Shown here: positions 2,181-10,539 of the stretch, in pieces | How positions within the stretch are numbered: the first letter of the stretch is position 1 | Layout of the letters: every line of letters starts with the position of its first letter | Origin: a virus | Lineage: Duplodnaviria > Heunggongvirae > Uroviricota > Caudoviricetes | Direction: 5' to 3' (one strand) | Length of the DNA: 15,704 bases | Virus record (IMG/VR): IMGVR_UViG_2703718817_000007 | Made by a program: the position numbers and the translations under genes | Notes under the pieces: generated by a model | Seen by the model: the letters and a program-made list of their open reading frames with translations, nothing else | Told to the model about the DNA's origin: nothing | Database searches by the model: none

Positions 2181-3263
2181 ATGAAAAAATTAACAGTGGC
2201 AATTTCTGCTGTAGCTGCATCAGTACTGATGGCGATGTCTGCTCAGGCAGCTGAAATTTATAATAAAGACAGTAACAAGCTGGATCTATACGGGAAAGTT
2301 AATGCCAAGCACTACTTCTCCTCTAATGATGCAGATGATGGTGATACTACTTATGCCCGTCTTGGCTTCAAAGGTGAAACCCAAATCAACGATCAACTGA
2401 CTGGTTTCGGTCAGTGGGAATATGAATTCAAAGGCAACCGTGCTGAATCTCAAGGTTCTTCCAAAGACAAAACCCGTCTTGCATTTGCAGGCCTGAAATT
2501 TGGTGATTACGGCTCAATCGATTACGGCCGTAACTACGGTGTAGCATACGACATCGGTGCGTGGACTGACGTCCTGCCAGAATTCGGTGGTGATACCTGG
2601 ACCCAAACAGATGTGTTCATGACTGGTCGCACTACTGGTGTTGCAACTTATCGTAACAACGACTTCTTTGGTCTGGTCGATGGCCTGAACTTTGCTGCTC
2701 AGTATCAGGGTAAAAATGACCGCACTGACGTAACTGAAGCCAATGGTGATGGTTTCGGTTTCTCCACTACTTATGAGTATGAAGGATTCGGCGTGGGTGC
2801 AACCTATGCTAAATCAGATCGCACTGACGGTCAGGTCGCCTATGGTAAGAGCAAATTCAATGCCTCCGGCAAAAATGCGGAAGTATGGGCTGCAGGCCTG
2901 AAATATGATGCGAACAATATCTATCTGGCTACCACATATTCTGAAACTCAGAATATGACCGTTTTTGGTAATAACCATATTGCAAACAAAGCACAAAACT
3001 TTGAAGCAGTAGCACAATATCAGTTTGACTTCGGTCTGCGTCCATCTGTTGCTTACCTTCAGTCAAAAGGTAAAGACCTTGGTGTTCATGGTGACCGAGA
3101 CTTAGTCAAGTATGTCGATGTCGGTGCTACTTACTACTTTAATAAAAACATGTCCACTTTTGTTGATTACAAAATCAACTTAATTGACGATAGTAAGTTT
3201 ACCAAAACAGCTGGTATTGATACCGACGACATCGTCGCTGTAGGTCTGGTTTATCAGTTCTAA
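2181..3263 (+). CDS. nmpC: Outer-membrane general porin of the OmpC/OmpF family (NmpC / phage PA-2 Lc-like), intact, 360 aa
   Basis: ORF track 2181..3263. Signal peptide [23 protein letters not shown]|AEIYNK; porin hallmarks ([15 protein letters not shown].., Gly/Tyr-rich beta strands, C-terminal ..VAVGLVYQF). Sits between Q and the lysis genes in the opposite orientation, as nmpC does in DLP12. Preceded by a roughly 400-bp AT-rich region (1780-2180). Confidence 0.9.
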
Positions 3264-3270
3264 TCTGACT

Positions 3271-3311
3271 TACGAAAAAGATATGTTGCGGGAGGCTTTG
3301 CCTCCGCAACA
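3271..3311 (-). terminator. Candidate tR'-like intrinsic terminator for the short pR' transcript (minus strand)
   Basis: GC-rich hairpin tgttgcgggagg (3284-3295) / cctccgcaaca (3301-3311) with one bulge; on the minus strand it is followed by uaucuuuuucg (reverse complement of 3271-3283). No U-run on the plus strand. Confidence 0.45.
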
Positions 3312-3451
3312 TATAAGTGGAGCCCTCAAGCCACTTCCTTTAGAAGCACTACCTTGCTTCTTACTATATAAACCTTCTGTTATATATTACCCTTTATTTT
3401 GGGGGCGTTTCCACGCCCCATTTTTAATAACTTTTAGTAAACAATTGCATA
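3312..3451 (-). promoter_or_regulatory. Region expected to hold the late promoter pR' and the Q-utilisation (qut) site; exact -35/-10 not resolved
   Basis: Lies immediately downstream of the Q stop (3452) and upstream of the tR'-like hairpin, the arrangement known from lambda and 82. Several imperfect sigma70-like hexamers (e.g. ttgata..., tatagt on the minus strand) but none unambiguous. Confidence 0.3.
3402..3426 (+). terminator. Plus-strand intrinsic terminator, likely for the porin transcript
   Basis: Stem ggggcg (3402-3407) / cgcccc (3414-3419), loop tttcca, followed by atttttaat on the plus strand. Confidence 0.45.
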
Positions 3452-3835
3452 TCAATTAGAATTATTAGCAACGATATCCATATCTAACCGGATATCTAAT
3501 GCCATTAACATCCCTTCAATTATGCCCTCAGCCTTCTGTAACCTTTTCCCGATATAACCATCCGAGCAGCAATGCTTACTTGCCAGTGACATGAATGTCA
3601 TACCACATACATAATAATCTACTAATAAATCGTGTAAATCGCTGTTGTTCTTTTTCAGACGGGCCATGCACCCGCAAATGATCATCGCGTCATCGTCACA
3701 ACATTGCGGGCGAGATTTTACTTTTGAAGGAATTAATCCCTTAAAACCGGCGGCAATGGACGACCAGGTCACATCTTCATGATTATTAGCCGCCCACGCT
3801 CCCCAACGTTCAAGAACCATCTGAATATCACGCAT
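3452..3835 (-). CDS. Q: Late-gene antiterminator Q (phage 82 / DLP12 QuuD family), 127 aa
   Basis: ORF track 3452..3850 is the TTG-extended form; ATG at 3833-3835 follows GGAG. Product starts [24 protein letters not shown].. with Cys-rich zinc-binding core ([17 protein letters not shown]); length equals QuuD as recalled. Confidence 0.85.
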
Positions 3836-3852
3836 TAACTTTCTCCACAAAA

Positions 3853-4848
3853 TCAGGCCAGCACACCAATCGCCAGTGCGCGATCGATAAAACGAAATAT
3901 CAGCTCCAGCTGGGAGCCATACTTCTCTTCAAATGCCACGGTATCCGCATGCAGCTCGTCGTGATGCTTTCTGCACAAAGGCAACACAAAAAGGTCATGC
4001 GCTTTTGTACCCATTCCCCCCTGACCGTGGCCTATCAGGTGGTGGGGATCATCAGCAGGTTTTCCACAACATGCGCACGGCTGCGTCTTAACCCAGCGCG
4101 TGTACTTTTCATTAACCCAGCGGTGACGTTTTGGGCGTAACATAAAAGACTCCGGCGACTCCGGATCCACTTTCAGCGCCAGCACCTTTTTCGCCTTATC
4201 CTGGATGATGCTGGTGGCAGGAACCGAAGGCACAAGGTCACTTTCCCGGGTAACAGACGGCACAACAGGCTTCGGTAATCTCAGTGCCTTACGGGCTGCA
4301 CTTTCCGGTAAGGCATCCGCCAGATCATTACGAATCAGCCACCAGCACAGTTCCGGCATTGTCACAACATGACTGTCATCAAAACCGAGATCCCGACGCA
4401 CAACAGACAACACCCAGCGGGCACAGTTATCCGTTGCCATTGATTCCAGCCGTTCCGTGAACTGATCGCGCAGCTGGTTATCGCAGTGCCAGCACAGACG
4501 GATTGCGCCCGGAGCGTGTCGCATTGTTGTCATGTTCTCGCTGTGCCAGTCGGAATGAGGCCACTGGCAGCCTTTTTCACGAAGTAACCAGCTTTCAAGA
4601 CATTCCACGCCACCAGCACGACGGATCACTGCCTCATTGCGGAACACGGCCCGAACGGCAGGATCATCCGCCAGCGGTTGTGATGCCGCCGGAACGGCAC
4701 CACTGGCGAAAGATGAATAACGTTCCGGCTCAGGCTCCAGCAGGACACGCCCCTGCATAAACAAGGGCATCAGCTCTGAACCTGGTCTGAACAATACGAT
4801 CCCCATACGCGGGGCAATTTCAGGGGTCAGTAGTGCTCTCACGGTCAC
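3853..4848 (-). CDS. Phage protein with C-terminal Cys/His-rich HNH-like motif (DUF968-like by recollection); function unknown
   Basis: ORF track 3853..4848 (GTG start overlapping the upstream stop; an alternative ATG at the RMGIVLF codon exists). C-terminus [43 protein letters not shown] has paired Cys and His-His motifs. Family name is from memory, unverified. Confidence 0.5.
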
Positions 4849-4849
4849 C

Positions 4850-5665
4850 TCAATGAACGGTATCGAGCAGCTTTAACAGCTCAGGGAATCGGGATTCGAA
4901 GAAATGCGGCTGCGTCTCGCGCGGATTTGCAGGACTGGTGATGTTCTTGCCGAACATGCAGCCTTTCGCGGTCAGCGACCAGAATTTTTTGATGTTGTTA
5001 ATCGCGGTACGGCTGTATCGTTCGCGTTGTTCAACGATCCCCAGCTTCGCCATCTGGTGATATGCCTGATTAGCCGTCAGGCGGATACCATACTGCTTCA
5101 GCAGTGCACTCAGCGACAGCGTAGGGCGGCTTGAACCATCTGGCGCATCAGCAGGTGCATCAATGGCATAGATCGGCATAAGTTCAGGAAGACCAGCTAC
5201 CTTTGATAATTTCTGGTATGCACCAAGTTTCGAGGAGTTTGACAGATTTAGAGTCTTTGCTGCTGATTCAAGCAGAATGACCCCGGATTTAATTTTGTCG
5301 GATGTGGTTTCTTCTGGTGATGAATTATGAAGCGCATCAAAAGTACGTATCACTTTTAAGCTGAATGCCGGGCTGATCCACATTGCATATGCATAGACCA
5401 GCTCTTTACAGACATACGTCCCACCATTGCGCCCCTGAATGGTGATGACAGGAATACTACGGGAATCTCCCGTAGTTTCTTCTTCCAATAATTCCACAAG
5501 AGCCTTCGTTTCAGGACGACGCATAAACTCGTGAACTTCCAGCGAACGGGAGGAGCGATTCTCACCAGCGGCAAGAAGAGCTGCTTTCTGAAGGTCGTTA
5601 AGACAGTAGTTAGATTCGAAGTACTGGCGCACAGAAACGCCATCAATTACAAGCAACTGATTCAT
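4850..5665 (-). CDS. KilA-N domain protein (phage antirepressor/Bro-like architecture), 271 aa
   Basis: ORF track 4850..5677 is the GTG-extended form; ATG at 5663-5665 follows GGAGAAA. N-terminal 100 aa resemble the KilA-N fold (MNQLLVIDGVSVRQ.., ..TYVCKELVYAYAMWISPAFSLKVIRTF); C-terminal half is a separate domain. A consensus LexA box lies just upstream. Confidence 0.7.
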   Translation of the reverse strand: MNQLLVIDGVSVRQYFESNYCLNDLQKAALLAAGENRSSRSLEVHEFMRRPETKALVELLEEETTGDSRSIPVITIQGRNGGTYVCKELVYAYAMWISPAFSLKVIRTFDALHNSSPEETTSDKIKSGVILLESAAKTLNLSNSSKLGAYQKLSKVAGLPELMPIYAIDAPADAPDGSSRPTLSLSALLKQYGIRLTANQAYHQMAKLGIVEQRERYSRTAINNIKKFWSLTAKGCMFGKNITSPANPRETQPHFFESRFPELLKLLDTVH

Positions 5666-5762
5666 TGGTTTCTCCACAAATTTTTATCCACGAGCGGGAC
5701 TGCACTCCCTTTTCGTTGATGCAGGATGAACTTACTGCGATTTTTAATAGTTATCAAGGATA

Positions 5763-5782
5763 CACTGTTCATAAATACAGTA
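5763..5782. promoter_or_regulatory. Consensus-like LexA (SOS) box in the rusA / KilA-N intergenic region
   Basis: cACTGTtcataaatACAGta at 5763-5782: CTGT-N8-ACAG with an AT-rich spacer, close to the TACTG(TA)5CAGTA consensus. On the minus strand it sits immediately upstream of a candidate promoter (TTGATA-17-TAAGTT) for the KilA-N gene. Confidence 0.55.
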
Positions 5783-5827
5783 TCTTTAACGAGGTAATAC
5801 CCAAATTTAGGGTGTTGCTCAATTCCG

Positions 5828-6223
5828 TTACCGAGTTGCTAATTTGCAACTCGCTTTTTCGTACTTACTGATAGTGATCTCGACCTTCCCCTCCGGGATA
5901 ACCGGTCCCCACTCCACCAGCATTCTTTTCACCTGACTGTCGTCTTCCCACACACCCGCGTGGGTCAGGGCGTCAAACAGCGCCTTGTTATAGTTGTCCA
6001 GATCGCGGATCCGGTTATCCGGAGGAAACAACACGATCTCCACTGAAGCAGGTGCCGACGTTGGTTTCGGCAGACGACGTAACTGCTCAACTATTGCTGC
6101 ACACGCCGCGCTCTGGAATTTTCGCCCCGCCGCGCTTATCAGGCTCTTACCAGCAAACGCCCCTTTGTTGGGGTGTCGCCAGTACGTGTTCACGCTGGGC
6201 GGAAAAGGTAGGATCAGCTTCAT
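5828..6223 (-). CDS. rusA: RusA-family Holliday junction resolvase, 131 aa
   Basis: ORF track 5828..6223. MKLILPFPPSVNTYWRH.. with the RusA acidic catalytic region (..DNRIRDLDNYNKALFDALTHAGVWEDDSQV). ATG overlaps the upstream gene stop (ATGA). Confidence 0.85.
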   Translation of the reverse strand: MKLILPFPPSVNTYWRHPNKGAFAGKSLISAAGRKFQSAACAAIVEQLRRLPKPTSAPASVEIVLFPPDNRIRDLDNYNKALFDALTHAGVWEDDSQVKRMLVEWGPVIPEGKVEITISKYEKASCKLATR

Positions 6224-6546
6224 ACTTTCAGGCCCCTCTCATGTAACCAGTGGGCTGCACGCAGCCTGGCGTTTTCCTCACCGGCAAGCAGTGAGCGGAT
6301 AATCCCGACCGCCTCGCTGTCGTCGTCCTTCACCACGGTATGAAGCGTGATCCCCCGGGCCACACCACGCTTTATCGTGATGACGCCTTTTTTCTCCAGT
6401 GCGCGAAGATGCTCCACCGCTGCATTCACTGAACGGTATCCCAGCATGGTTGCCACCTCCTGATTGGTTGGCGGGAAGCCACGTTCTTTCTGATAAGAAA
6501 TCAGCATATCCAGCACCTGCTGCTGGCATTGAGTTAACGTCGTCAT
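6220..6546 (-). CDS. Small protein consisting of a LexA-type N-terminal winged-helix DNA-binding domain only, no S24 peptidase domain, 108 aa
   Basis: ORF track 6220..6546. LTQCQQQVLDMLISYQKERGFPPTNQEVATMLGYRSVNAAVEHLRALEKKGVITIKRGVARGITL parallels the E. coli LexA N-terminus ([55 protein letters not shown]) as recalled. Only about 35 aa follow. ATGA overlaps at both ends. Confidence 0.7.
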   Translation of the reverse strand: MTTLTQCQQQVLDMLISYQKERGFPPTNQEVATMLGYRSVNAAVEHLRALEKKGVITIKRGVARGITLHTVVKDDDSEAVGIIRSLLAGEENARLRAAHWLHERGLKV

Positions 6547-9864: not shown

Positions 9865-10539
9865 ATGAAAACAATCCATGACATCCGGCGGTCTAACGCC
9901 AGAAAACTGAGAGATGGTGTTGGCGGGAATTCTTCCTTTGCCACTATGATTGATCGCGAGCCAACCCAGACCAGCAGGTTTATGGGAGATGGTGCTACTA
10001 AAAATATCGGTGACAGCATGGCACGACACATCGAAAAATGTTTCGACCTGCCTGTCGGATGGCTCGATCAAGAACACCAGACAACGAACATCACAAAAAA
10101 ACCTGATGTTTCAATCACTAATAAACAAATCACATTAGTCCCTGTCATATCATGGGTACAGGCCGGAGCATGGAAAGAAGTTGGATATTCTGAGGTTGAT
10201 TTGAGCACAGCAGAAACGTATCCCTGCCCTGTACCCTGTGGGGAAATGACTTATATCTTGCGGGTGATAGGTGATTCAATGATTGATGAGTACCGCCCGG
10301 GAGACATGATTTTTGTCGATCCTGAAGTACCTGCCTGCCACGGTGACGACGTTATTGCATTGATGCACGATACAGGTGAAACCACCTTCAAAAGGTTGAT
10401 AGAAGATGGGACACAGCGTTATCTCAAAGCGTTAAACCCAAACTGGCCTGAGCCTTACATTAAGATCAACGGTAATTGCTCTATAATTGGAACTGTGATT
10501 TTCTCAGGAAAACCAAGAAGATACAAAATCAAAGCCTAA
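9865..10539 (+). CDS. cI: CI-type prophage repressor (N-terminal HTH plus C-terminal LexA-like S24 peptidase domain), 224 aa
   Basis: ORF track 9865..10539, ATG start. C-terminal domain has GDSM (Ser nucleophile), ..TFKRLI.. (Lys) and VQAG linker motifs as in lambda cI/LexA. Confidence 0.85.
   Translation: MKTIHDIRRSNARKLRDGVGGNSSFATMIDREPTQTSRFMGDGATKNIGDSMARHIEKCFDLPVGWLDQEHQTTNITKKPDVSITNKQITLVPVISWVQAGAWKEVGYSEVDLSTAETYPCPVPCGEMTYILRVIGDSMIDEYRPGDMIFVDPEVPACHGDDVIALMHDTGETTFKRLIEDGTQRYLKALNPNWPEPYIKINGNCSIIGTVIFSGKPRRYKIKA

Follow-up and report, generated by a model that had tools for sequence, protein, structure and literature searches.

A KilA-N regulator gene and an HNH-type DUF968 gene adjoining upstream of Q in a lambdoid prophage: plausibly separate functions and a predicted LexA operator

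Two adjoining, co-directional genes were analyzed on the minus strand of a 15,704-nucleotide (nt) stretch of the Caudoviricetes record IMGVR_UViG_2703718817_000007 (referred to here as the window): a kilA-N gene (4850-5665) and a DUF968/YdfU-family gene (3853-4842), which together fill positions 3853-5665 exactly. With a rough probability of 0.55, the two genes have separate functions and belong to the delayed-early ("nin") operon of a lambdoid prophage of the SfIV/PhiR49_1 type, the first encoding an SOS-switchable regulator of the antirepressor type and the second a Ref-type recombination nuclease independent of it. On the whole this is an ordinary finding, since the families and the neighbourhood are known and the pairing is explained by conserved synteny; the sole unusual feature is the strong predicted LexA operator ahead of kilA and DUF968 in the present allele. 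The original prediction, made from the letters of the sequence, had placed the kilA-N gene, a Cys/His-motif gene and a LexA box side by side just upstream of the antiterminator gene Q, and the coordinates agree with this; the minus-strand order is a gene for a LexA DNA-binding domain (DBD), rusA, a 162-nt spacer, kilA-N, DUF968 and Q. The principal features are as follows:

4850-5665, minus strand: kilA-N gene, 271 amino acids (translation; PF04383; phrog_129 "transcriptional regulator", E 4e-109; RefSeq WP_001072669.1)
5324-5638, minus strand: KilA-N (APSES-like) DNA-binding domain, residues 10-114 (PF04383, E 1.3e-15)
4853-5125, minus strand: C-terminal alpha/beta domain of the kilA product, approximately residues 181-271 (alignment; tblastn to F10 Ant, APSE-2 G and SopranoGao gp47)
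4840-4852, minus strand: kilA/DUF968 junction (TGA 4852-4850, Shine-Dalgarno sequence GAGGTGA, 7-nt spacer, GTG 4842-4840)
3853-4842, minus strand: DUF968/YdfU-family gene, 329 amino acids (PF06147, E 3.4e-81; phrog_96 "HNH endonuclease", E 6e-177)
3919-4092, minus strand: predicted C-terminal zinc-HNH (His-Me finger) nuclease core, residues 251-308
4471-4569, minus strand: central Cys/His module (C92, H96, H100, C117, H119, C120; invariant columns and AlphaFold 2 model)
5763-5782, no strand assigned: predicted LexA (SOS) box TACTGTATTTATGAACAGTG, approximately 100 nt upstream of the kilA ATG (20.9 bits)

The DUF968 protein is assigned by its sequence to an HNH-type, zinc-binding nuclease fold, and nuclease activity is predicted for it. 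The PF06147 match covers residues 162-328 (271.8 bits versus a cut-off of 27.8), and the HNHc_6 model matches the C-terminal core (26.8 bits versus a cut-off of 26.6). The Cys/His residues of the C-terminal cluster (C256-x-C258-C259 ... H267 H268 ... H272 ... C290 ... H293 H294 ... H298) are invariant or nearly so among 17 homologues of 69-100% identity, with C256, C258, C259, H267, H268, C290, H294 and H298 invariant throughout. In the AlphaFold 2 model, residues 265-299 form a beta-beta-alpha core (strands 265-268 and 286-289, helix 291-299). Structural and profile similarity to the P1 nuclease Ref were both found: residues 251-308 align to Ref residues 91-146 in hhalign (E 7e-5), and one 71%-identical homologue (P0088) bears a precomputed match to the Pfam family RecA_dep_nuc (PF16786). 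The PF06147, HNHc_6 and Ref matches bear out the original prediction that the cluster is reminiscent of an HNH-type or zinc-binding nuclease fold. Its further claim, that these genes do not correspond to the lambda nin-region genes at this position, also stands, as homology of DUF968 to lambda NinG/Rap was undetectable (hhalign probability 1%). A sequence search with the HNH core against the Protein Data Bank (PDB) returned insignificant matches only (YbcO, E 0.2, and C2H2 zinc fingers).

Ahead of this core, and beyond the reach of the Pfam DUF968 model, the central module (residues 92-124, CQWPH..WH...LCWHCD) is modeled as a second beta-beta-alpha unit (strands 104-109 and 112-117, helix 118-124; predicted local distance difference test (pLDDT) scores 77-90) that resembles a degenerate HNH or treble-clef motif. 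Because its would-be catalytic His109 is not conserved, being Tyr in some homologues, the module is probably a structural or DNA-binding zinc finger. The classification of DUF968/YdfU with YbcO in group 7 of the His-Me finger nucleases, and the neighbourhood of RusA, Q and antirepressor genes, had been described before (Jablonska et al. 2017, PMC5714182). Ref-like nucleases cleave only RecA filament-bound DNA (PMC4713147, PMC3973344), and Gp16 of a Staphylococcus aureus phage is an HNHc_6-type, RecA-interacting nickase (PMC12817073). The DUF968 product would accordingly resemble these two as a zinc-stabilised HNH nuclease, its core being most like that of P1 Ref, and would most likely nick or cut recombination or RecA-bound DNA intermediates in lytic growth, filling the place of lambda Rap/NinG.

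The kilA-N gene starts at an ATG at 5665-5663, preceded by a Shine-Dalgarno sequence GGAG at 5675-5672, and its product combines a match to the PF04383 hidden Markov model with an APSES-like DNA-binding fold. The best-conserved region of the protein in the alignment is the C-terminal domain, which is 39-52% identical (tblastn) to counterparts that are joined, according to Pfam typing, to a Bro-N head in Pseudomonas F10 "Ant", a Rha head in Klebsiella SopranoGao gp47 and a KilA-N head in APSE-2 protein G. Since the same C-terminal domain carries Bro-N, Rha and KilA-N heads elsewhere, the kilA product appears to belong to a class of modular phage regulators usually annotated as antirepressors, and would act as a regulator with a swappable DNA-binding head and a conserved C-terminal domain; antirepressor activity is suggested for it by its position and the annotation of its relatives. 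The head has also been swapped within Escherichia coli, where most alleles (those of SfV, SfII and Stx2 phages) have a C-terminal domain 87% identical to the one studied here and an N-terminal region of approximately 52% identity, and the DUF968 proteins of these alleles are 98-99% identical. The profile and structure searches proposed with the original prediction placed the KilA-N domain (PF04383) and the HNH fold and left the kilA C-terminal domain with no match in Pfam or the PDB.

The predicted LexA operator is the window's only CTGT-N8-ACAG sequence. Under a matrix of 21 E. coli LexA sites, its score lies above the median of the known sites (which range from 12.6 to 25.9 bits), the next-best site in the window reaches 7.8 bits, and none of 1000 windows simulated with a first-order Markov model attained the score of the box. 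The box is situated in the 162-nt rusA-kilA spacer (the sole real gap in the operon), upstream of kilA, outside the immunity region and approximately 4 kb from the repressor gene. We infer LexA control of kilA from these features, and the gene could probably be switched on from a repressed prophage upon LexA cleavage. A literature search found nothing linking KilA-N with an SOS box. At the position of the window's LexA box, approximately 120 nt upstream of kilA, the orthologous loci of Rosenbergiella (L022, L029) carry an imperfect palindrome, ACTGGTT.C..GATCAGT (CTGG-N8-TCAG), a candidate for a weak LexA site or for some other operator.

Known SOS cassettes provide a setting for this arrangement. 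In the Gifsy layout, a LexA box in the nin region follows a terminator-like palindrome and controls dinI and an antirepressor gene (PMC3121763). Prophages of Kosakonia, Phytobacter, Buttiauxella and Dryocola (loci L006, L020, L021 and L027) contain consensus LexA boxes (e.g., TACTGTATAAATATACAG) approximately 1250 nt upstream of DUF968, followed by a DinI homologue, a small open reading frame (ORF), rusA, DUF968 and Q, and the sequences of these box-dinI cassettes match the Gifsy-type layout. The small ORF after dinI in L020 has no similarity to Rem by BLASTP, so that GfoA-type antirepressor is a tentative label for it. Because of the Gifsy layout and the box-dinI cassettes upstream of rusA-DUF968-Q, an antirepressor-type, SOS-linked role is suggested for kilA. 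In K-12 Qin, Rem lies upstream of ydfU and is a demonstrated antirepressor of DicA (PMC10448788). In related prophages, the slot beside DUF968 and Q that kilA occupies here contains a Rha-ANT gene, Rem or a Gifsy-type box-dinI cassette. An arrangement in which the cognate repressor is not self-cleaving and the antirepressor is the trigger of induction was not found, as the resident repressor (9865-10539, plus strand) is of the S24 type: it is YmfK-like (e14 type), matches Peptidase_S24 (E 1.5e-26), contains the motifs QAG, GDSM and FKRL, and is expected to cleave itself on RecA activation. An antirepressor would therefore not be needed for induction of its own prophage, and for this reason KilA-N is more likely to act in an accessory capacity or in trans, as a regulator or antirepressor, than to be the main switch for induction; Fels-1 FsoA offers a precedent for an antirepressor in a prophage with a cleavable repressor (PMC3121763).

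Several observations weigh against a reading of the two genes as an SOS-switchable regulator and an independent Ref-type nuclease. The AlphaFold 2 model of DUF968 has only moderate confidence (mean pLDDT 62), the sequence similarity to Ref is marginal (hhalign probability 63%), and PF16786 does not match the window's own protein at E <= 0.01. The kilA C-terminal domain has no match to Pfam ANT or KilAC and no experimentally studied close relative. The LexA box is missing or degenerate in the kilA orthologues of Kluyvera, Cedecea, Pantoea, Leclercia and Kosakonia and absent or degenerate in most E. coli alleles, and SOS control is for that reason not a core property of kilA; a consensus scan of either strand found no sigma-70 promoter overlapping the box. 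Finally, the sampled kilA homologues, down to approximately 53% overall identity, all keep DUF968 immediately downstream, and this retained adjacency weakly favours a link between the two genes.

It is the last of these observations that bears on the functional couple proposed by the original prediction, in which KilA-N would bind DNA or the nuclease and direct or license cleavage by DUF968, with translational coupling holding the two products in fixed proportion. DUF968 follows every sampled kilA gene at a spacing of -4 to +11 nt or after a single inserted ORF, at more than 90 loci in 12 or more genera (Escherichia, Shigella, Citrobacter, Kluyvera, Cedecea, Pantoea, Leclercia, Kosakonia, Rosenbergiella, Symbiopectobacterium, Morganella and Yersinia); the adjacency persists down to 38% DUF968 identity in Morganella, and the kilA C-terminal domain stays with DUF968 through the head swap described above. 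The reverse does not hold. Among 30 DUF968 loci sampled across species, the position directly upstream is taken by a KilA-N gene of the present family in six, a Rha+ANT antirepressor-type gene in seven, rusA itself in seven, a 92-94-amino-acid ORF with Rem approximately 350 nt upstream (Qin-like) in five, and another small ORF or a decayed gene in the remaining five, leaving 24 of the 30 without KilA-N. In addition, the proteins of Klebsiella SopranoGao, Pseudomonas F10 and APSE-2 that are related to the kilA C-terminal domain lack a DUF968 gene in their vicinity, and the LexA box that was to complete the unit is missing from most kilA-DUF968 pairs. Because all sampled pairs lie within one rusA-...-Q module and the distant C-domain relatives are without DUF968, the linkage seems best explained by common descent, as conserved synteny within that module, and a physical partnership is not required. 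Apparent KilA-N and DUF968 "fusions" (P0014, P0033, P0043, P0061, P0144) were discarded as Rosetta-stone evidence, being in-frame deletion products of decaying prophages. A dedicated functional couple is accordingly considered unlikely.

At the junction, the original prediction had the kilA stop and the downstream start overlapping; instead, a 7-nt spacer (GGTGACC) separates the TGA from the GTG, and it is the Shine-Dalgarno sequence that overlaps the kilA stop. The GTG at 4842-4840 is the RefSeq start, and homologues have GTG, TTG or ATG at this position followed by R-A-L-L; the GTG at 4848, the first in-frame GTG according to the ORF tool, was ruled out because RefSeq and the homologues use 4842. 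The arrangement fits re-initiation coupling, and translation of DUF968 would probably re-initiate 7 nt past the kilA stop. Tight junctions are generic in this operon and not peculiar to kilA and DUF968: by RefSeq coordinates, the five upstream gene pairs have junctions of -11, +2, -1, -4 and -4 nt, compared with +7 nt for kilA/DUF968 and +17 nt for DUF968/Q. Moreover, in some otherwise near-identical prophages, kilA and DUF968 are separated by a 173-amino-acid ORF (MRITPPHLQPVLSRVKRF...) that has tight junctions on both sides and no match in Pfam (positions 3832-4353 of locus L033; also in L034, L035, L061, L062, L064, L066, L069, L072, L074 and L103), a further point against an obligatory couple.

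The surroundings of the two genes contain the following additional features:

6220-6546, minus strand: LexA-DBD protein, 108 amino acids, two genes upstream of kilA (PF01726, E 3e-19)
5828-6223, minus strand: rusA, Holliday-junction resolvase, upstream of kilA (PF05866, E 6e-15; RefSeq RusA family endodeoxyribonuclease)
5832-5861, plus strand: terminator-like hairpin CGAGTTGC-TAATTT-GCAACTCG followed by CTTTTT, 8-bp stem (consensus scan)
5691-5715, minus strand: stem-loop in the kilA leader, CGA..GGGA-GTGCAG-TCCC..TCG (RNAalifold covariation)
3452-3835, minus strand: Q antiterminator (QuuD-like), at the end of the operon (PF06530, E 7e-54; RefSeq quuD)

Over 2.5 kb, the locus matches Escherichia phage PhiR49_1 at 100% identity and Shigella phage SfIV at 98%. 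Of 5426 complete E. coli genomes, 4658 contain at least part of the kilA/DUF968 module, and RefSeq names the products there "KilA-N domain-containing protein" and "DUF968 domain-containing protein". The LexA box has a far narrower distribution. It lies within a mosaic cassette of approximately 410 bp (~5441-5851), together with the plus-strand terminator-like hairpin and the first ~75 codons of kilA, and this cassette is found in 186 of the 5426 genomes and in SfIV and PhiR49_1; homology to other phages picks up again only from ~5852. The hairpin, whose orientation opposes that of the operon and which extends over the last codons and stop region of rusA, is present only in the LexA-box allele. 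A short LexA-controlled plus-strand RNA ending at this terminator was considered and dropped, as no plus-strand promoter was found.

The confinement of the box to this mosaic segment raises the question of whether it is a non-functional remnant of a recombined 5' cassette, with the genes expressed only from pR by antitermination. The half-boxes in the orthologous spacers of other genera (L074, L114 and L120) are consistent with such decay, as is the outcome of the promoter scan already described; by eye, a weak promoter candidate (TTGATA-N17-TAAGTT) is present just downstream of the box. Against a remnant, the box scores above the median of the E. coli reference sites and is perfectly conserved in 42 of 42 SfIV/PhiR49_1-type copies, including those with an adjacent 11-bp deletion, though these copies are nearly identical overall. 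We regard a dead box as quite unlikely. Alternatively, a LexA-controlled promoter might transcribe kilA, DUF968 and Q from the repressed prophage, so that damage would raise the nuclease and Q independently of repressor cleavage. The strength of the box, the activity of Ref during SOS, and the failure of a scan to find any convincing intrinsic terminator on the minus strand between 5665 and 3452 (where only weak 5-7-bp stems occur) all point in this direction; the lack of a clear promoter and the restriction of the box to one allele point away from it, and it would be wasteful for the phage to express Q with no replication under way. Such a bypass of the repressor has only an outside chance of being correct.

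Other elements of the region can be assigned to the junction after rusA or to the wider operon. The kilA-leader stem-loop has an invariant TGCAG loop and covarying stems, with compensatory changes at seven of seven pairs among 13 diverse sequences (RNAalifold), 85.7% of cells paired versus 39-61% for slid partners, and a covariation score of 0.75 versus at most 0.25. The TGCAG hairpin lies 20-35 nt ahead of the gene next after rusA, be it kilA or Rha-ANT; in some alleles it extends over the final rusA codons, and it is also found in L002, L004, L007, L022, L074 and L114-L121. Since it occurs at the rusA 3' end ahead of Rha-ANT genes as well, it belongs to the junction and not to kilA; it has no Rfam family match, and an Rfam scan of positions 3300-6300 gave none at all. 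The LexA-DBD protein, whose gene directly precedes rusA in most related loci, shares 43% identity with E. coli LexA across residues 1-86 of LexA, largely keeps the recognition helix (RSVNAAVEHL versus RSPNAAEEHL) and is without the S24 protease domain; to judge by these sequence features, it could compete for SOS boxes without being cleavable itself. Its gene shows no association with the box, being present in 40 of 42 loci with a box and 29 of 38 without. Downstream of the operon, an OmpC-like porin gene (2181-3263, plus strand), a typical moron, separates Q from the lysis genes and converges on Q; beyond its 3' end, at 3402-3419, lies a strong terminator hairpin, GGGGCGTTTCCACGCCCC with a T run.

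A reading of the two genes as a defence or toxin module, in which a toxic nuclease is restrained or triggered by KilA-N and acts against competing phages or through abortive infection, draws on a partial PADLOC match of the KilA-N region to the candidate PDC-S22 (E 7.5e-10, residues 63-118) and on the toxicity of the HNH relatives Ref and Gp16 when expressed alone. That match is limited to the generic KilA-N core, however, and DUF968 has no PADLOC match, nor is any single PADLOC system model matched by both proteins. The genes also lie within a delayed-early lytic operon and not in a moron or defence-island position, and a defence role is very improbable.

Under the preferred reading of two separate genes, kilA, DUF968 and Q would be co-transcribed in the delayed-early operon, and in the LexA-box allele LexA cleavage would switch on kilA from the repressed prophage. 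A bolder extension, which must be rated a long shot, is that the LexA operator makes kilA-DUF968 (perhaps with Q) a prophage-borne SOS operon, in which damage yields a RecA-filament-directed nuclease and a trans-acting antirepressor while the prophage is still repressed, and the LexA-DBD paralogue (6220-6546) might re-shut the operator in the lytic programme. If this were true, other prophages in the cell could undergo cross-induction on the pattern of Gifsy/Fels crosstalk, and DNA-damaging antibiotics could become more lethal, as happens with P1 Ref. Most E. coli genomes contain the module, with Stx-converting and Shigella serotype-converting phages among its carriers, and the predicted functions now permit concrete experiments on two prophage genes that are very common yet annotated as "hypothetical". 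Should the LexA box prove functional, it would represent another case of SOS-wired prophage crosstalk, and the allele that carries it could be a phage-encoded factor affecting survival under quinolones.

Comparison with known systems places each gene among familiar relatives. The kilA product shares its N-terminal KilA-N domain and APSES-like fold with the modular KilA-N/Bro-N/Rha regulators, a group that includes P1 KilA, P22 Ant, HK022 Roi, F10 "Ant" and APSE protein G; it differs in a C-terminal domain that the Pfam ANT/KilAC model does not detect. The SOS-controlled antirepressors (Gifsy GfoA/GftA/GfhA, 186 Tum, N15 AntC and Qin Rem) are alike in the placement of a nin-region LexA box outside the immunity region and after a terminator-like palindrome, and Rem and the Gifsy-like box-dinI cassettes occupy the equivalent slot near rusA, DUF968 and Q. 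However, the antirepressors themselves are small (~80-150 amino acids) and unrelated to KilA-N, and their prophages have non-cleavable repressors in contrast to the self-cleaving S24 repressor here.

For the nuclease, HNHc_6 proteins such as PhiNM1 Gp16 and the Orf-HNH proteins of Listeria and Staphylococcus phages have the HNHc_6 core in common with DUF968 and are likewise early phage genes linked to recombination and RecA, although in a different host and a different genome context. P1 Ref (PDB 3PLW) aligns with DUF968 in its core motifs (PCxxC ... HH ... LPLCRxHH ... EKY), and both proteins have a poorly ordered basic segment ahead of the core (for Ref, PMC4330346); DUF968 differs in an additional 190-residue N-terminal part that includes the second Cys/His module, and Ref is controlled by the C1 repressor and situated elsewhere, in a non-lambdoid phage. 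Lambda Rap/NinG has a comparable location, towards the end of the nin region with a few genes between it and Q, and a similar expected role on branched recombination intermediates; it belongs to the same His-Me superfamily (PMC5714182) at a distance beyond sequence detection, and is an analogue by position. Within group 7, DLP12 YbcO (PDB 3G27) consists only of a 96-residue nuclease core, unlike the 329-residue DUF968 protein. The YdfU-type proteins (PF06147, group 7; e.g., YdfU of Qin) are approximately 48-57% identical to the present DUF968 protein, are likewise encoded immediately upstream of a Q gene and share the same conserved set of Cys and His residues.

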